Virus record (IMG/VR): IMGVR_UViG_3300017767_005578
Coordinates: 9-64,008 of that record
Length of the DNA stretch: 64,000 bases
Direction: 5' to 3' (one strand)
Origin: a virus
The position numbers and the translations under genes are program-made. This document shows positions 126-58,610 of the stretch, one piece after another; within the stretch, counting starts at the first letter, position 1; every line of letters begins with the position of its first letter. The notes below the pieces were generated by a model, which worked only from the letters and a program-made list of their open reading frames with translations, did no database searches and had not been told where the DNA came from.

Positions 126-473
126 TTATATGTGTATTTTTCCATTACTAGCAGTTTTACCTCTCAATTTAATAAATTCAGATTTAATCTGTTTTATCTT
201 TTGGTAAAGCTTTTCATCCTTTTTTACAAGGTACTGCTCGCTTAGGTTTTTGTGTTCTTTTTCTAATTGTGCAATCTTCTCTCCTTTGGTTATTACACTG
301 TTGAGATAGTCCCTGACTGCTTTAATGGAGTCTATTGTTTCGATAGAGAACTGCTTAGAAGGAATGTGTAATCCTTTGATGTAATATTCACCTACCATAA
401 TAGTTATTTTGTCAAACTTATCATTGGTTGTGATAACCGCATTTCCTTCTTTATCTAAAATTAATGTTCTCAT
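126..473 (-). CDS. hypothetical protein (115 aa, coiled-coil C-terminus)
   Basis: ORF track; co-oriented with neighbours, plausible composition. Confidence 0.6.
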   Translation of the reverse strand: MRTLILDKEGNAVITTNDKFDKITIMVGEYYIKGLHIPSKQFSIETIDSIKAVRDYLNSVITKGEKIAQLEKEHKNLSEQYLVKKDEKLYQKIKQIKSEFIKLRGKTASNGKIHI

Positions 474-488
474 ATTTTTTATAAAAAT

Positions 489-551
489 TAACAGGTTGTA
501 AACGCAACCTCGTTCCTCGGTAGTCGCTCAAGCTCGTTTACAAGGGCGTTA
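489..551 (-). repeat. attC-like hairpin site A (63 bp)
   Basis: Minus strand reads TAAC-GCCC-TTGTAAACG...CGTTTACAA-CCT-GTTA; 50/63 identical to site at 6525-6587. Confidence 0.8.
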
Positions 552-560
552 GTGGTAATA

Positions 561-746
561 CTACTTACTACCAAAATATTTTTTAGGTATCATACATTTT
601 TCTATAAGTCTTTTATGAACTTCTTCTTGTGAAGGAATCAATTCAAGAAAGCTTTTTAAAGAATCAGACATACCTAAATCAATAGGTTTTATTTCCGTAC
701 TACCACTAACATTATTTAAATTCAATTTATCTTTCGCTTTGCTCAT
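561..746 (-). CDS. hypothetical protein (61 aa), fused across an attC-like junction
   Basis: ORF track; NV|SGS junction = AAT GTT AGT GGT AGT, complementary to ATTACCACTAAC after the stop. Confidence 0.6.
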   Translation of the reverse strand: MSKAKDKLNLNNVSGSTEIKPIDLGMSDSLKSFLELIPSQEEVHKRLIEKCMIPKKYFGSK

Positions 747-798
747 TCTAAACAGTATTTACATTTATCATTGTAATCACATTAAAACGTGTTACAAA

Positions 799-999
799 AA
801 CGTGTATAGGTAATTATTACCCTTGCTTTTCTGCGTTATCAAAGGCATTATCTATCCATTCTTGTATGGTTTGCCCTTGTGGTATAAATAATTGGTTGTT
901 TTTATAAAGTGCATACATAAGTATTTCAAATTGTTCTTTCTTCATAATTATATTTTTAAGTTATTAAATCGGGCAAAAACTACCCATACACAATGCGTT
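799..999 (-). repeat. long-loop attC-like site D
   Basis: AAC...TGTATGGGTAGTTTTTGCCC (990-971) pairs with GGGTAATAATTACCTATACA (822-803), then C-GTT; 3 G-T wobbles and 1 mismatch. Confidence 0.65.
817..945 (-). CDS. small hypothetical protein (42 aa, MKKEQFEILMYALYKNNQLFIPQGQTIQEWIDNAFDNAEKQG), absent from ORF track
   Basis: Translated by hand; A-rich leader; lies in the loop of site D. Confidence 0.55.
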   Translation of the reverse strand: MKKEQFEILMYALYKNNQLFIPQGQTIQEWIDNAFDNAEKQG

Positions 1000-1007
1000 G
1001 TACGCAA

Positions 1008-1226
1008 TTATTCGGGAAACCATTCAGTTATTGTTGTATCAACAAACTCTTGTCCACCAACTGCATTTATCATATCATTAGTATAAGCAACCGCTTCGTT
1101 GTACCTAATAAATACTTGGTCATCAGAAGTTGCATAAAAACTCAGAAGTTGTTGTCCAAGTTCTGTTTCAAAAATCTCATTAGCTTTTTCTTGTGTCATT
1201 GTCGTAAATTTAACTGCGTACAACAT
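1008..1226 (-). CDS. hypothetical cassette protein (likely start Met10, MTQEKAN)
   Basis: ORF track; flanked by GTTGTACGCA (997-1006) and TGCGTACAAC (1215-1224). Confidence 0.65.
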   Translation of the reverse strand: MLYAVKFTTMTQEKANEIFETELGQQLLSFYATSDDQVFIRYNEAVAYTNDMINAVGGQEFVDTTITEWFPE

Positions 1227-1308
1227 TGCATAAAGTTAATACGCTATGATGGTCAGTACTTTAATTTAAAAGTTTAGGTAAAGCGTACTAACCTTATACT
1301 TTACCGTT
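1222..1308 (-). repeat. long-loop attC-like site C
   Basis: AAC-GGTAAA-GTATAAGGTTAGTACGCT / AGCGTATTAACTTTATGC-AAT-GTT; 18-bp stem with 3 G-T wobbles, 36-nt loop. Confidence 0.75.
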
Positions 1309-1322
1309 AGTTAGCAATAACA

Positions 1323-1961
1323 CTAAGTCCATTGCTCTGCCATAGCTTTTGCAATTCCTGGATATGTCTTACTTCTTAATTTAGCCCTATCTTTTGTTGG
1401 GGGTAGTTTATTTTGTCCTGTGTCTGTTTGATTATCCCAATATTTTTTTCTTCCAAATATTCTAGGTTCAATATATTTTGTTCCATTAAGATTTGGAAGC
1501 CCTTTAAGCCACAAACACGTTCTTTTACTTGCGTTATCTCCAAATTCATAAGGCTGTATTGTTTGATTTGGTTTTTTAAACATTGTGCTTAATTTACCTA
1601 CTGGATTTTCTATTGCTATTTTTGGTATTCCTGAGTTCCATAGTTTTTTAACAAAATCAACAGCTTCTATCCTAGCTTTTTTTCTTTTTGTTCCAACAAG
1701 TGTTCCTTTTTTTACTTTTTGGTGATAAGGAGGTTCTTTGTAAGCCCATTCTGCACTACAAGTTAAATAAGTGCAATCAGGAAAAAATATTCCCATATCC
1801 CATTTTTTTAAATTTATTGCTTCAAAAACATCCATTTGTAAATGCCATTCAGGATGACCTCCGCTACAAGGAATTATGTCACAAGAAAAAGCCTCATGTC
1901 CTCGCTTTCTCAACTCTATTGTTACCGCTTGGCTCTCTTCGCAGCCTACTAATATTTTCAT
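1323..1961 (-). CDS. phage DNA cytosine methyltransferase-like protein (atypical)
   Basis: MKILVGCEESQ...SCDI..CSGGHPEWH N-terminus, FPDCTYL catalytic-like motif, IAIENPVG, KRTCLWLKGLP, RSKTYPGIAKAMAEQW typical of this phage family. Confidence 0.7.
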   Translation of the reverse strand: MKILVGCEESQAVTIELRKRGHEAFSCDIIPCSGGHPEWHLQMDVFEAINLKKWDMGIFFPDCTYLTCSAEWAYKEPPYHQKVKKGTLVGTKRKKARIEAVDFVKKLWNSGIPKIAIENPVGKLSTMFKKPNQTIQPYEFGDNASKRTCLWLKGLPNLNGTKYIEPRIFGRKKYWDNQTDTGQNKLPPTKDRAKLRSKTYPGIAKAMAEQWT

Positions 1962-1976
1962 AATTTAATTTACTAA

Positions 1977-2624
1977 TTAACAAGTCTGAACTCCAAAAAT
2001 ATCATCTTCATGGATAACCACATAATCTTCACCTTCTATCTTAAGATCAACAGCACCCAGAGGTTTAACAACAATCACATCACCTTTACTAACTTCATCA
2101 GCAATAAACCTTGAAGGAGCAACCACCTCTAATAAATCTTCTGTTTTTTTATTCTTAAGGTAGTCTGGAATTATTAAGGTTGTGGATTGGAATATGTTTT
2201 TATACTTCTTACAAATGGACCACTTGTGTATTGGGATTATCTCTCCGTCTACGATTTTACAATATGAGCTAGTAGCATACTTAGCAATCATATCTCTAAA
2301 GAACCGAAAGAAAAACTTACCGTCTTCTGTTCTTCTCTCAAAATTAACCACATGATGATGAAAGTAAACAACATCACCTTCATCTATTTCATCCAGAGTT
2401 ATTTGGTCTTTCTTAACTATACTACTAAGCCCTCTTGGTTTTCCTACTACCGTTCCTTTGTGAGGTATCAAAGAAGGATCTAAAGGAGCTGTGCCGTCTT
2501 CTTCCATTCTGGAGAATATTGTATCCATGTAAAGCTCTACTTCTTTTTCTCCTAATTTTATGGTTTTTTTCAAATGCTGTTTTAGGTCAATATCAACAAG
2601 CATAAAATCTTTTACGTATATCAT
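1977..2624 (-). CDS. co-chaperonin GroES-like protein with two tandem domains
   Basis: C-half IIPIH...LIIPD...EVVAPS...VSKGDVIV...LKIEGEDYVVIHEDDIFGV matches GroES; N-half GTVVGKP...IDEGDVVYFHHHV is also GroES-like. Confidence 0.7.
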   Translation of the reverse strand: MIYVKDFMLVDIDLKQHLKKTIKLGEKEVELYMDTIFSRMEEDGTAPLDPSLIPHKGTVVGKPRGLSSIVKKDQITLDEIDEGDVVYFHHHVVNFERRTEDGKFFFRFFRDMIAKYATSSYCKIVDGEIIPIHKWSICKKYKNIFQSTTLIIPDYLKNKKTEDLLEVVAPSRFIADEVSKGDVIVVKPLGAVDLKIEGEDYVVIHEDDIFGVQTC

Positions 2625-6524: not shown

Positions 6525-6587
6525 TAACAAGTTGTAATTGCAAGCTCGTACCTCGCCAGTCGCACAAGCTCAATTACAAGTATGTTA
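6525..6587 (-). repeat. attC-like hairpin site B (63 bp)
   Basis: TAAC-ATAC-TTGTAATTG...CAATTACAA-CTT-GTTA; compensatory changes relative to site A. Confidence 0.8.
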
Positions 6588-6594
6588 GCAAACA

Positions 6595-6810
6595 TTACTT
6601 ACTTGCTTCATATCTTTCATTCCAACAAGGGAAACACAACCCATCATTTAAGTCTTGTACTTTATTTCCACACTTACACGTAAGCAACGATTTGCTAACA
6701 TTAGCTATACGTAATTGCTCTTCGTAAGCATCTATAATTCTTTGTGCTTCTAAATATTGTTCTTCTGTTATCATAAGTTTAGTTTTTAATACGCAACTAC
6801 GCATAGCCAC
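6595..6810 (-). CDS. small Cys-containing hypothetical protein (likely start MITEEQ), fused across an attC-like junction
   Basis: CKC...CFPC in C-terminal part; IANV|SKS junction. Confidence 0.55.
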   Translation of the reverse strand: MAMRSCVLKTKLMITEEQYLEAQRIIDAYEEQLRIANVSKSLLTCKCGNKVQDLNDGLCFPCWNERYEASK

Positions 6811-6818
6811 GTCCGTTA
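6697..6818 (-). repeat. long-loop attC-like site
   Basis: TAAC-GGACGTG-GCTATGCGTAGTTGC / GCAATTACGTATAGC-TAAT-GTT; 15-bp stem with 2 G-T wobbles, 74-nt loop. Confidence 0.75.
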
Positions 6819-14780: not shown

Positions 14781-15488
14781 TTTGTTTGTTTTATTTTGTG
14801 CGACATTGCACATTTATAATAGAAACCCTCTAAAGATTTGAACTTTACTAAAGACACAATATAAAATTTGTCTAAGGGTTTTAGCTTTTTTATTTATCAC
14901 CGCTTGCAAGCTGTTAAACAATACGATTGCAATTTTTAGTTGATTGCTAACTATATAAAGGCAAGGTGACACATTTAATATATGCCACCTTGCAAGTATA
15001 CCATATAAGAATACAGTATATAACATGTAGATCTTTTTTATCTTACATTTATTGATTCATTTGTTTACACTTTCGGTTTGTTCCGAACTGTTTTTTTAAA
15101 CTGTAGTAACTGAAGACTACGTGTAAAAATTCAATTTAGCTTTTTACTTGCTAGTTGTAAATAGGCTTTTTTATCGCATAGCAACTAAACTATGAGTTTA
15201 CAACATAGGTTATATTTCAAACCGCCTTAATACTAGGTTTTTTAATTGCGCTACTAATTAAAAAACTTTTTTTAATATCAATACTTCAAAGAAAATTCAA
15301 ATCCGTTTAAAAGTGTTAACACGTCAATTCAACACTACCCAATTAAGGGCTAATTATCCCGCTATAATTTAAACGCTTTAAAATGAACGAATAATATAGT
15401 TTTAGTTTAAAAGCCCCTTTGCTACGTCAAAGCACTATATTTTAAAAGGGGTACACGTTTTTAAAAGGAACGTGCAAACCGTTATTAA

Positions 15489-15887
15489 TTAGCCTAGTTT
15501 CTCGTTTAACGTCTCAAAATCTTGAGTAGTAAATTGTTTTATTTGGTATCTCGATGCCTCAATACAGATTGAAACGTTATTTTTGAAACGTGTTCTACCT
15601 TTTTTGTTCCATTGCAATTTGCATTTTTGTTGTAATTGCGTGAAGGCTAGGCCAGTATTTAATATTGTTTCGTGTTCGTTTTCGTCGTTAACGTTTTCAA
15701 CACGTACTAAAACAGGTAAAGAGAAATTAAACAATTTTGCATTTGAGTTTTTAAAAAAACTTAACATTTCATAGAAATTGCCTACTAAAGTGTTAACGTT
15801 TGTTTCGTCCGTTAATTCATAGGTTAAATTATTCGTTAAATCAACCGTTTGATTTTTGTCTAATTGGTAAAAAGTTACTTTTTTCAT
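15489..15887 (-). CDS. hypothetical protein, first gene of the leftward early block
   Basis: ORF track. Confidence 0.55.
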   Translation of the reverse strand: MKKVTFYQLDKNQTVDLTNNLTYELTDETNVNTLVGNFYEMLSFFKNSNAKLFNFSLPVLVRVENVNDENEHETILNTGLAFTQLQQKCKLQWNKKGRTRFKNNVSICIEASRYQIKQFTTQDFETLNEKLG

Positions 15888-16430
15888 TTTAATAAAGTTT
15901 AAATTGTGGTTAACCTTAAAACGGTGTTAACCTTAACCGTCTGAGACAAAGTACGTTTAAATTATTCGTTAAATCAAATTTTAAGACTAAAAAAATTAAA
16001 CTTTTTTTTCAATTATCTTGTAACTCATTGATTATCAACTAAATAAATTTTATTAATAGTATTGTACAACACCAGGAAAATTAAAAAAAAAGGGCCTCAA
16101 GGTGACACAATTACAAAAAAGAAACAATAAGAATAATACTACTATAATAGAGAAGACATACAGGAACTATGAAAAAAAATTGTGTGTATTTAGTTTTGAT
16201 CTCTCAAGGTGGGGAAATAAAAAAAAGTATCTGATGTATTAAACAAACGATTTAAACAGATACAAAATTTTTTAAAACTATATACGCTTTGAATTTTTCC
16301 CCAAACAGAAACAAAAACAAAGTTTTCTCAACCGTTCGATAGGGTAAACACAAGGTATTGAACGGCAAATAGTTAAGGCCATAAGACTAAAAACAAAAAC
16401 AGTTAATTGTGACGGGAGGAAACGAAAAAC

Positions 16431-16513
16431 GCGCCCACCCCCCAAAAGTTTTGCGCCTCCCCCAGGAACGATCACCCCCGACGCACACCCCTATAACCCC
16501 ACTCCTTTAACCC
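16431..16513 (-). other. C-run cluster (G-tracts on minus strand) at the transcription divergence point; candidate pac/terminus/origin
   Basis: Seven runs of 3-6 C in about 80 nt of an AT-rich genome; strand skew flips here. Confidence 0.5.
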
Positions 16514-16762
16514 TGTAGATTTCAGGCGGTTACGTGGTCTATACTGGAGCATTCTAAACATATCTGTAACTTTTTATTGTTGTAGGTGTATGTTTTGTTA
16601 CCTAACCGTAATGATTTACGGTTTGTATAAGAGTGGTTAATTATTCATGTGTAGGAATTGGTATTTTGTGGGATAAAGTTGTTATATTAGTAATTCAATT
16701 ACCTCATGGCTGTGCAAATATTATCGTGTTTTCTCGGGTCAAGAGGTTCAAAGTAGTGTAAA

Positions 16763-17056
16763 ATGGCATATAAGGGATATAAGAAAGAACCAGAGCGAAG
16801 GAAGAAGTATGATCCTTTGTATTTGGATTGGTTGGACAGGTATCGTCAGTTGCGTTGTTTACGGAATGTAAGCAGGAAGTATATGGCGAGGGAGTTGGGT
16901 TTAACGGACAGGACTTATTATAAGAAGGAGGTTTGTATATCCAGTTTTACTTTTTATGAGTTGGTAAAGGCTTTTCGTATTTTGGGTTATGATTTGCGAG
17001 TTGTGGTTGATGATGTTTTCAGTCATGACAAGAGGGGAAGGCGAATAGATTATTAG
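16763..17056 (+). CDS. XRE/Cro-like HTH transcriptional regulator
   Basis: LRCLRNVSRKYMARELGLTDRTYYKKE...FTFYELVKAFRILG HTH_3 pattern. Confidence 0.7.
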   Translation: MAYKGYKKEPERRKKYDPLYLDWLDRYRQLRCLRNVSRKYMARELGLTDRTYYKKEVCISSFTFYELVKAFRILGYDLRVVVDDVFSHDKRGRRIDY

Positions 17057-56709: not shown

Positions 56710-56734
56710 AAAAAAAAGAGGGTTTTACCCCTCC
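56710..56734 (-). terminator. intrinsic terminator
   Basis: GAGGG/CCCTC stem followed by T-run on the minus strand. Confidence 0.5.
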
Positions 56735-57870
56735 TTATAATTTTTAATGTTCACTCTAAAAGTAGCTCTTTTTCCTTCAGGGCGTTTATTAAGTATTCTA
56801 CCATTGTCTCCAAAAGAGATAACCTCATCATACTTAGAGAAAGCCATAATCTTTTGCTTTAGCTTGTCCTTGGTTTTTTCAAGCAAAGCTATATCATCTG
56901 TACAAGTTTTATACTGTACAGCTATATCCCATTCTTCCTCTTCTCCTTTTCTAGATGTGTCTTCGTAAGATACTTTATACTTGTCTTTATAAAACTCTAA
57001 ATAAGCTTCGTTTCCTGACGGCTCTGGTTCTATGTCTGTTATTTGCCTATCTATCTCCAGCTCATCACCTTCAGAGTTGTATATGTCTCTAGCCATAGTC
57101 ACACGATTCCAGAACTCATAAGACTTTACGATAATCTCTTGACATAATTCTAGGTCCATGTCTAAAGGCAATACATTAAAGTCCACACCTGCTACTAGGT
57201 ATGCAAGTTCAGAGTATGTAATACCTAACACTATCATTTGAAGGTTTGTTTGAACTACGTACCTGTGTGGTATTCCTAGTTCATACTTCTCTGCTGCGAA
57301 CTGAGAAACCATCTTTATTTCTAGAGAAGCGTCTGACTCGATTACCTCACCTGTAAAGGGTGAAACCTGTCCTCCTGGGATAAAGAAGTCTAAGGAAGCT
57401 GATAAATGCGGATAGTTGATGTTTACAGCGTAACAAGGGATAGGAACTTTAGTTCTAATCTTTTTAGCTTGCGTCCAGTTATCTACCCAACCTGTTTCAG
57501 TTCCATCGTAGAACTCCCATAGGTCTGATATTTTCTCCTCAAAGTGCAAACCGTTTACAGTAAACTTTGTTGCAAAGGGAGGTATGTCGTAATCTATCTT
57601 ACTTCTGAAAAGTTTTACAGAATCACCATACTCATCCATTTCTATAATTGTAGCTATCTCTGATGATCCTATTGTATTTTTTCTAAACGAATACCAATCT
57701 TCATTTCTTTTACCTTCAATAAACTGAGGGATAAAAAAACCGTATACATCTTCTTTTATTTGTTTAGCGTACTTAGCGTATTCTCCTAAGTGTGCGATTT
57801 CCTCTGGTAGGTTACACCCAAGATTATCTAATGATAAATCTATTTTATTCATTTCCAATGTTGTTGACAT
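56725..57870 (-). CDS. YqaJ-like (lambda-Exo family) exonuclease
   Basis: WYSFRKNTIGSSEIATI, G..FE, LSASLD, LEIK, YVVQTNLQM. Confidence 0.85.
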   Translation of the reverse strand: MSTTLEMNKIDLSLDNLGCNLPEEIAHLGEYAKYAKQIKEDVYGFFIPQFIEGKRNEDWYSFRKNTIGSSEIATIIEMDEYGDSVKLFRSKIDYDIPPFATKFTVNGLHFEEKISDLWEFYDGTETGWVDNWTQAKKIRTKVPIPCYAVNINYPHLSASLDFFIPGGQVSPFTGEVIESDASLEIKMVSQFAAEKYELGIPHRYVVQTNLQMIVLGITYSELAYLVAGVDFNVLPLDMDLELCQEIIVKSYEFWNRVTMARDIYNSEGDELEIDRQITDIEPEPSGNEAYLEFYKDKYKVSYEDTSRKGEEEEWDIAVQYKTCTDDIALLEKTKDKLKQKIMAFSKYDEVISFGDNGRILNKRPEGKRATFRVNIKNYKEG

Positions 57871-57950
57871 ATTAATTGTAGATTAAAGAAACGGGCTTCA
57901 CCTACTCCCGTTTTGAATTAAGGCTTCTTTATAACTGCTACGTGTAATAT

Positions 57951-58610
57951 TTAAAAAGGTAAATCGTCATCCTCCTCATACGAAGGCTCTTCTTTTTTTG
58001 TTTCTAATGGCTTTGATTTTAAAAAGTTATCTACTTCTTCCGCTGCTTGTTTTAGTTCAGGAGAAACGGTGTTTAGTATGTTGTCCTCAGCAGGTTTTAA
58101 TTGAGAACACATTTCTTTAAGCTTTTCATGAAGCTCGAAACGGTCATAGTCTGTTCTATCTCTAAGCTTTGTTACCTTAGTCAATTCCATTTGCTCTTCG
58201 ATACTAAGTTTCCACTTAGGTCTGTCATCTCCGTTTATCGTTAGATAAGCTGTTGGAAATGATTTACCGTCTTTAGATCTTGTTGCTAATGAAATCTTAA
58301 TCAATCCTAACTCTGGGTAAGAGGAAAGTGTATTAAGAATACCTCTACCCACCATGCTTAGTGATGATTCAATAACATAGTCCATACCGTCATCGGTAAT
58401 GGTAAGATTAAAAACTTCTGTTTTGTCGCCTTTATATTCATTAACCTGAAAGTTAATAGATTTAAAATAGCCACTAACAAATGTTTCGCTTTGTGTGTGC
58501 TGATACTTTCCTGTTTCAGCGTTCTTCTGATAAACCTTAAACACTGGTTTTTCTTCTTTAGTGTTTAGTTTTAAATAAGTCTTCGGAGCATTATCTCTTC
58601 CTAGTCCCAT
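57951..58610 (-). CDS. probable single-stranded DNA-binding protein
   Basis: Acidic C-terminal tail EEDDDLPF; beta-rich; located between exonuclease and primase-helicase. Confidence 0.6.
   Translation of the reverse strand: MGLGRDNAPKTYLKLNTKEEKPVFKVYQKNAETGKYQHTQSETFVSGYFKSINFQVNEYKGDKTEVFNLTITDDGMDYVIESSLSMVGRGILNTLSSYPELGLIKISLATRSKDGKSFPTAYLTINGDDRPKWKLSIEEQMELTKVTKLRDRTDYDRFELHEKLKEMCSQLKPAEDNILNTVSPELKQAAEEVDNFLKSKPLETKKEEPSYEEDDDLPF

Follow-up and report, generated by a model that had tools for sequence, protein, structure and literature searches.

Integron-like cassette arrays in a phage genome and a related site family in Flavobacteriaceae

Introduction

Integrons and attC-site clusters that have no integron integrase (CALINs) carry promoterless cassettes in one orientation, separated by imperfect palindromic sites (..AAC/GTT..) whose spacers are unequal and whose loop varies. 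A cassette begins with bases complementary to the box before its own site, which is the mark of a circular intermediate. Further characteristics are strand-biased folding, rapid turnover and a cargo rich in DNA methyltransferases. These features are shared by two loci, at 489–1961 and 6525–6818, in the phage genome of IMG/VR virus record IMGVR_UViG_3300017767_005578. We analysed a window of 64,000 nucleotides (positions 9 to 64,008) that spans nearly all of this 64,031-bp record, which IMG/VR classifies as a provirus that is 92% complete. All array coordinates are given on the minus strand of the window. Both loci are probably recombinase-less integron-type arrays, similar to CALINs, that are served by an enzyme of the host.

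Integrons are regarded as mainly proteobacterial and as rare in Bacteroidota, and to our knowledge integrons in phages are represented by no more than a handful of predicted attC clusters. Beyond In0 elements, surveys of Bacteroidetes with IntegronFinder reported a single complete integron (PMC9024848). Our literature search found no paper on a flavobacterial platform of the kind described below or on integron-like cassettes in Flavobacteria.

Several other systems resemble the loci in part. Sedentary chromosomal integrons, such as the Vibrio cholerae repeats, likewise reuse a small number of near-identical site types for numerous genes of unrelated cargo, and the host arrays reported below reach 8–12 or more cassettes. 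They differ in phylum, site sequence and recombinase clade, and the site types studied here are spread over many unrelated phages. In T4-type phages, conserved promoter-terminator sequences (promoter plus stem-loop motifs, PeSL) are thought to act by homologous recombination (PMC2839356, PMC4122927). As in the window, small early genes of hyperplastic phage regions are flanked by stem-loops, and near-identical phages differ by gene modules. Elements of the IS200/IS605 family and repetitive extragenic palindromes with their associated transposases (REP/RAYT) resemble the loci in having strand-specific hairpin DNA and in inserting behind a short fixed sequence that is not duplicated.

Results

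Organisation of the array at 489–1961

Stems, folding energies and comparison with relatives confirm that hairpins C, D and A alternate with small open reading frames (ORFs), as proposed in a preliminary description of the window made from its letters alone (Table 1). The arms of site C (1297–1282 and 1245–1230) pair over 16 nt with 88% Watson–Crick pairs, or over 18 bp if G-U pairs are counted. The minimum free energy of this site is −26.9 kcal/mol, compared with −19.8 ± 3.1 in shuffles and −18.6 for the opposite strand. In the stem of site D, 20 of the 21 nt are paired (counting three G-U pairs; folding z = −3.96). Site A is kept in every relative that has the system, and its stem shows compensatory changes, from G-C to T-A in relative L008 and from AC/GT to TT/AA in the copy at 6587–6525.

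The start and end boxes of cassettes 1 and 3 are complementary over 14 nt at 93% in both cases, in agreement with the earlier proposal, and end complementarity recurs in further cassettes, where the changes are compensatory. Perfect 10-nt GTT..AAC pairs at most 3 kb apart occur genome-wide about as often as in shuffles, and hence the two box pairs in the window carry little weight by themselves. In the relatives' arrays, by contrast, all 11 perfect pairs are located exactly at a cassette end before a site, and pairs with at most one mismatch number 30, versus 7.4 in shuffles. Furthermore, a downstream box matching its own partner at 9 or more of 10 positions was found in 12 of 29 distinct phage contexts, versus none of 29 controls.

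Two units had been described differently before. A degenerate unit at 793–708 resolves into an empty stem-loop and a weak site, both listed in Table 1. The stem-loop aligns with GTTGTATGTC..GCATACAAC in the phages L008 and L054, and the same box pair surrounds the methyltransferase gp38 in Polaribacter phage P12002L. The segment at 1321–1310, previously seen as an excision scar, more likely represents the 3′ end box of the methyltransferase cassette. In the window, neither the 5′ site nor the start box of the methyltransferase-like ORF has been retained. In L007 the 5′ site is intact and the gene forms a full cassette, consisting of the site, GTTAGCATTA, the ORF and TAATGCTAAC|.

None of the three small ORFs in the window belongs to a recognised family, and the early proteins of unknown function gave no recombinase-like family in PHROGs or Pfam. 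The ORF of cassette 1 comprises 72 aa when read from 1226 and has 40 homologue clusters, all from phages or metagenomes. Read from 746, the ORF of cassette 3 has 61 aa, and read from 672 it has 36 aa. Transcription of the array appears to read through from the upstream early genes.

Two sequence contexts accompany the boxes. Many start boxes are followed by a conserved leader, GTACGG and then an AT-rich stretch ending in ..AAATAGA before the ATG (window 699–690, L007:2809–2850, L125). Many end boxes are preceded by TAATTG, which contains the stop codon of the ORF; AATTG within this context recurs in host arrays, whose genes lie on the other strand.

Table 1. Features of the two arrays and of the neighbouring genes in the window.
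Feature	Position	Strand	Basis
Methyltransferase-like cassette ORF, 212 aa	1323..1961	minus	Homologues annotated as DNA methyltransferase in Cellulophaga and Flavobacterium phages
3′ end box of methyltransferase cassette (..TTATTGCTAAC), then duplicated TAAC	1310..1321	minus	Aligns with TAATGCTAAC of L007 and L008
Site C: AAC, spacer, 18-bp imperfect stem, 36-nt loop, spacer, GTT	1221..1309	minus	Folding; covariance model R1
Cassette 1 payload: start box GTTGTACGCA (1224–1215), 63-aa ORF (1199–1008), end box TGCGTACAAC (1006–997)	997..1224	minus	
Site D: 21-nt stem arms (991–971 and 822–802), loop with whole 42-aa ORF (945–817)	802..996	minus	
Empty start-box/end-box stem-loop (GTT...AAT) without ORF, completing cassette D	770..801	minus	
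Weak site; loop holds first ATG (746) of the next ORF	707..773	minus	R1, 19.6 bits
Cassette 3 payload: start box GTTAGTGGTAGT (710–699), ORF to 561, end box ATTACCACTAAC (559–548)	548..710	minus	
Site A: conserved anchor closing the array; cassettes would enter at its 5′ TAAC	489..551	minus	Relatives; R1
One-cassette array ending in site B (6587–6525), a covarying copy of site A	6525..6818	minus	Relatives; R1
Cpn10-like (double GroES-like) gene, conserved upstream flank	1977..2624	minus	Pfam Cpn10; all relatives
115-aa gene, conserved downstream flank	126..473	minus	No Pfam or PHROG family
Small serine recombinase, resolvase type, 231 aa	3249..3944	minus	Pfam Resolvase, 1e-34

Cassette turnover among related phages

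We compared at least 15 contigs in which both flanking genes are present at 57–100% amino acid identity. The spacing between the two genes varied from ~80 nt to 2.5 kb, and 10 different array states, including the empty one, were found among 11 lineages, with zero to five cassettes at the locus. Fixed synteny, which would have argued against a cassette system, was not seen. In L001 and L002, both flanks are 97% identical to the window at the nucleotide level, yet none of the cargo of the window is present. In L006, L031, L032 and L034 the array is empty, and the stop of the Cpn10-like gene (..TCTTAAC) is directly followed by site A. The other states include one cassette (L001), two cassettes (L002, L003), the methyltransferase only (L007), a gene resembling 3′-phosphoadenosine-5′-phosphosulfate (PAPS) reductase (L030) and five ORFs (L004).

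Homology to the window ends at 1977 in L001, L002, L006 and L007, and is regained exactly at 551 in L001–L006. L027 matches the window from ~795 onward and has a different upstream neighbour. Contigs assembled from public runs of other samples show breakpoints near 545–564, 1312–1329 and 1977, at cassette borders. The second locus behaves similarly: homology to relatives is lost at 6814 and regained at 6587, and the gap measures 0 nt in L034, 227 nt in the window, 364 nt in L004 and 1074 nt in L001 and L002.

The units inserted in relatives consist of AAC|G, a spacer, a hairpin, a spacer, GTT-N7, an ORF and N7-AAC|, with boxes that are complementary over 10–14 nt. The junctions lie inside a shared (T)AAC, and the exchange point can be resolved only to these 3–4 bases. 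Two box families, GTTAG[T/G]GGTAGT with ATTACC[A/C]CTAAC and GTTGTA[C/T]GC with GC[G/A]TACAAC, show compensatory changes around unrelated ORFs. In L030, for example, GTTAGGGGTAGT and ATTACCCCTAAC differ from the boxes of cassette 3 by a compensatory T>G and A>C, and surround the unrelated PAPS-reductase-like ORF. The cassettes are therefore gained and lost in the manner of integron cassettes, with junctions at a conserved triplet and complementary ends of their own. The turnover expected in the preliminary description was thus observed, although the cassette geometry needs correction. Cassettes had been described as starting with GTT, whereas the crossover maps to the AAC 5′ of each site on the sense strand, which means that a site travels in front of its ORF.

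Two further observations were made in relatives. In L004 (6640–9190), two paralogous ORFs are alike over their first 30 codons and diverge exactly at an in-frame GTT start box, so that cassette exchange can yield in-frame fusions with a leader encoded in the site loop. In the more distant relatives L016 (4125–4405) and L017 (4090–4370), ~280 nt of non-coding DNA that looks foldable replaces site A before the homologue of the 115-aa gene.

Covariation and folding strand of the sites

Hairpin searches by regular expression or with permissive settings produced numerous false hits within genes, and a covariance model was used instead. This model (R1) was built from 16 sites of other phages and contains none from the window. 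In its alignment, AAC and GTT are invariant (16/16), the spacers measure 5–6 nt on one side versus 3 nt on the other, and the loops range from 8 nt to >150 nt. Stem positions were paired in 90.5% of cases, compared with 77.4% in shuffles, and 37 double changes were counted, compared with 12.6. The covariation score was 0.358, versus 0.150 in shuffles (0 of 500 reached the observed value) and at most 0.142 in slid controls. Some stems have single mismatches or bulges, and no conserved extrahelical position was established.

When R1 was run over the whole window with filters off (128 kb searched), 1309–1221, 773–707, 551–489 and 6818–6696 were among the five best matches. Site C obtained the best score (24.2 bits, E = 0.0045), followed by the weak site; site A scored 15.7 bits and 6818–6696 scored 15.1 bits. 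With the same model, six sites were detected in P12002L and two in Cellulophaga phage phi18:1. Rfam gave no match in the whole window at gathering thresholds, and none in 1–2700 at E ≤ 5.

In 9 of 12 sites, folding was better on the sense strand. G-U pairs occupy two stem positions in 9 of 16 and 14 of 16 sites, respectively, which implies that the folding strand is fixed; this agrees with the bias of wobble pairs towards one strand first noted in the window. With AAC/GTT boxes, a covarying inner stem, spacers, a loop and one preferred strand, the sites have the architecture of the attC type. They probably fold as single-stranded DNA.

The same cassettes and sites in unrelated phages

Cassette C, comprising site C, the 63-aa ORF and the end box, is also present in L148, a contig from a phage that has RecA-like and UvdE genes. 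Here homology extends from AAC|GGT to GCGTACAAC|G and is bordered on both sides by unrelated sequence. Site D, its loop ORF and the empty box pair are ~97% identical in L054, a complete 34.5-kb phage, where the match starts exactly at AAC|GCATTG. In L008 the arms of site D are identical and the loop ORF has diverged. These recurrences identify the mobile unit as site, start box, payload and end box, with the cut inside the shared (T)AAC or at its edge. An integron cassette has this geometry when it is read on the bottom strand.

A search with a 16-nt piece of the 5′ end of site D gave 86 IMG/VR stretches. About 45 of these are true sites, which belong to two nearly invariant hairpin types, and both types are flanked by differing end and start boxes across contexts. 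The known cargo comprises N6/N4 and other methyltransferases, PAPS-reductase-like proteins and small unknown proteins. The methyltransferase of L008 is 88% identical to P12002L gp36 at the nucleotide level. P12002L has the full architecture around its methyltransferase genes, including a site with an ORF in its loop, and its box pairs are identical to those of L008 and L009. The window ORFs of at least 50 aa had no tblastn match in P12002L. In Pelagibacter phage HTVC111P and Acaryochloris phage A-HIS1, homologues of the methyltransferase are so closely packed that no space is left for sites, which shows that the cassette system does not accompany this gene everywhere.

Qi et al. 2023, who reported CALINs in phages, predicted two attC sites in P12002L with HattCI, one of which (attC1) is homologous to the present family and has the same CGTTTTAATG loop (PMC9892861). 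We observed two more R1 sites in this phage (L042; 38035–38090 and 38879–38936) that flank the gp54 methyltransferase and form a second array, which is not mentioned in the text of that paper as far as it was available. In the cultured Cellulophaga phage phi18:1 (L043), the two R1 sites (2093–2138 and 2487–2541, 41–44 bits) lie between small early genes.

Host arrays and a linked recombinase

R1 matched 58 of 151 sampled Flavobacteriaceae genomes, often in clusters, so that the search of phages and hosts revealed the same site family in bacterial arrays, beside a recombinase related to Xer and IntI. Three of these arrays (L168, L169, L170) alternate ORFs and sites over 8–12 units, with a site 8–20 nt after each ORF. 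As in phages, the box after one site is complementary to the box before the next. The short host sites have the same loop as P12002L attC1, and the long host sites (~125 nt) contain a GGCGAG..AC.AGCAAT motif that is common to sites A and B. Seven matches to the exact hairpin pattern in bacterial genomes were rejected as host evidence; they are single copies on short contigs of metagenome-assembled genomes and look like binned phage DNA.

A tyrosine recombinase is encoded 2–6 kb from each of the three arrays, and two of these enzymes are 42% identical. Of the 151 genomes, 105 contain homologues (E ≤ 1e-40), which frequently lie at contig ends. For at least 13 genomes, the recombinase lies 1–25 kb from R1 matches on the same contig, whereas ~2 are expected by random placement (an estimate; positions were compared by hand). 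It is this physical linkage that is strong, rather than co-occurrence in the same genome. Two layouts were found, with the recombinase either divergent from the array or upstream and co-oriented. Recombinases at least 53% identical to the G136 enzyme (L169) are divergent from the array, and a class at ~45% is upstream and co-oriented (L168, L170; G068, G176). The G068 copy is truncated.

The best NCBIfam models for the host recombinase, XerA/integron integrase and TIGR02249, both remained below their cut-offs (TIGR02249: 179–195 bits versus 265; XerA_Arch: 195–216 bits versus 220). The integron-integrase profile was matched in two stretches (best match 4–180 of 315; truncated copy 240–314), and its central part, which contains the IntI-specific insertion, is skipped. 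The enzyme thus reaches neither the TIGR02249/PRK15417 cut-off nor a match to this insertion.

The better-folding strand, i.e. the sense of the model, is antisense to the genes in all three host arrays, and the orientation agrees in the other linked cases. This implies that the strand asymmetry belongs to the DNA site, and not to mRNA. In phages the folding strand is the sense strand, so that the cargo is inverted relative to host cassettes. As a correction to the preliminary description, the phage arrangement is the reverse of that in host arrays and classical integrons.

Recombinases and genomic neighbourhood of the phage

A six-frame search of the 64-kb genome gave no match to Phage_integrase at E ≤ 1, nor to Y1_Tnp or RVT_1. 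The reported absence of a tyrosine recombinase is therefore correct, although a serine recombinase had been overlooked (Table 1). Among 31 phage records that carry the sites, of which nine are at least 90% complete, none contained a tyrosine recombinase over the Pfam cut-off, and no IntI is encoded next to the array. IMG/VR classifies the record as a provirus, yet an integrase was not found in the genome.

The serine recombinase is the only site-specific recombinase of the genome. Its gene lies ~600 nt upstream of the Cpn10-like gene and is present in all close relatives, including those without sites (L035, L038–L040). No resolvase was found in 28 other site-bearing phage records, among them P12002L and eight that are at least 90% complete. 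This enzyme is probably unrelated to the array.

The window has a GC content of ~33%. Early genes occupy the minus strand at 1–15.9 kb and 56–64 kb, and structural genes the plus strand. The sole long non-coding gap (15026–16763) is located where early and late transcription diverge. The Cpn10-like gene is 57–100% identical among relatives at the amino acid level, and its stop codon, within ..TTAAC, provides the AAC of the first junction. Few isolated phages match at the DNA level (Cellulophaga, Flavobacterium and Tenacibaculum phages); the relatives come from marine metagenomes. A YqaJ-type exonuclease gene lies beside a gene for a 219-aa protein without family match (56725–58610, minus strand), possibly a single-strand annealing partner in a Red-like module.

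Discussion

The two loci resemble integrons in the organisation, covariation and turnover of their cassettes. They differ in that the phage has no IntI and the host recombinase stays below the integron-integrase cut-offs without a match to the IntI-specific insertion; for these reasons, the system does not qualify as a complete integron. Furthermore, the end boxes measure 10–14 nt versus 7 in attC, payloads can lie in the site loop, and the phage cargo is on the folding strand. An attI was not recognised (no attI model was applied), and an attC-like anchor closes the array. As the same site family occurs in flavobacterial arrays beside an integrase-like enzyme, the phage probably borrows the enzyme of its host. 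The earlier proposal of cassette capture and shuffling by an integrase elsewhere or in the host is thereby supported. None of the observations named as contrary to it was made, namely fixed synteny without junctions at GTT, loss of the end complementarity at homologous sites, or hairpins behaving only as terminators or RNA leaders.

Several points weigh against this interpretation. P12002L attC1, the site most similar to the family in the window, gave no recombinants with IntI1, while recombinants were obtained with the other P12002L attC, on the opposite strand (PMC9892861). Genome-level co-occurrence is weak, with the recombinase in 45 of 58 genomes with R1 matches versus 60 of 93 without (counted by hand). 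Because the phage cargo is inverted relative to host arrays, direct exchange of cassettes between phage and host is no more than a possibility. Moreover, L004 and L008 have nearly identical hairpins with different neighbours on both sides, which a single crossover point fails to explain. Finally, no recombination event was observed; the public runs are stored as contigs, which contained no excised circles and are unable to reveal circles or rare joints.

An improbable alternative is that the stems act in RNA, where they would close, stabilise, process or terminate cistrons, and that array content varies by homologous recombination in flanks or hairpins between co-infecting phages, as proposed for T4-type PeSL. 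The better-folding strand in phages is indeed the mRNA-sense strand with its G-U wobbles, the stems surround whole ORFs or ORF starts, and part of site A scores as terminator-like. The two hairpin types, near-identical over dozens of phage contigs, could also serve as homology, and the YqaJ-type exonuclease would fit a Red-like system using short homologies. However, host sites fold best antisense to their genes and are physically linked to a tyrosine recombinase. Unlike PeSL, these sites also occur in bacterial arrays, and the junctions share only the 3–4 nt of (T)AAC, as the boxes are the cassettes' own and differ between neighbours. The cassettes recur in phages without other protein-coding homology, promoter-like and terminator-like matches are at chance level (terminator-like: 3 versus 1.3 ± 1.2), and Rfam recognised nothing.

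It is very unlikely that the serine recombinase of the phage moves the cassettes. As the sole site-specific recombinase, near the array and conserved in close relatives, it would be an obvious candidate, but it is equally kept in relatives without site A and cassettes and occurs in 0 of 28 other site-bearing records. The substrates of serine recombinases are double-stranded sites, with a 2-bp crossover, and not strand-biased hairpins. Since its presence does not track the sites, we rejected it as the driver. We attach an equally slight probability to hairpin-end elements of the IS200/IS605, palindrome-associated transposable element (PATE) or REP-RAYT kind, which an HUH (Y1) transposase would mobilise in single-stranded form, cutting beside a hairpin and after a short target like TAAC. 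Strand specificity, insertion 3′ of a fixed tetranucleotide without target duplication and a hairpin at the 5′ end of the unit would suit such elements. Yet the genome encodes no HUH transposase, the units have one hairpin and complementary end boxes instead of subterminal hairpins at both ends, and they are organised in arrays. The host arrays, moreover, are linked to a tyrosine recombinase and not to an HUH gene, though HUH genes were not searched for there.

For the integron-type interpretation we propose the following mechanism. Read on the sense strand, a cassette would consist of a folded site, a start box GTT-N7-10, a payload and a complementary end box N7-10-AAC, the payload usually lying between the boxes and sometimes inside the site loop. 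Excision would produce a circle in which the paired boxes extend the stem of the site, as R″ and R′ do in attC. Exchange may take place within or at the edge of the (T)AAC 5′ of a site, so that a circle would integrate before a resident site, and sites A and B could be fixed anchors or entry points that take the first cassette. A host recombinase related to Xer and IntI would act in trans during infection and cause gain, loss and swapping of cargo. This cargo of DNA methyltransferases, PAPS-reductase-like genes and small unknowns is probably anti-defence. As a speculation, if phage genes run with the replication fork, the sense strand would be the lagging-strand template and the folding strand would be exposed. 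The complete proposal, an integron-like system of flavobacteria and their phages with its own sites, a Xer-like recombinase without the IntI hallmark, a host enzyme that swaps anti-defence genes, an inverted phage cargo and wholly different cassettes in genomes with flanks still ~97% identical, seems to us slightly favoured on balance; the literature that we searched does not describe such a system.

The phage locus offers cassette gain, loss and exchange at the population level, with junctions at base resolution. Dozens of unrelated phage contigs carry the same sites, as do about 4 in 10 of the Flavobacteriaceae genomes that were sampled, there beside a distinct recombinase clade. The inverted phage cargo predicts which strand is exposed in phage replication, and the cultured Polaribacter phage P12002L is a possible test system. 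If the host enzyme acts on phage DNA, abundant marine phages would have a general route to trade methyltransferases and counter-defence genes. If true, this would provide a second, independently tractable model of single-strand, structure-specific recombination.

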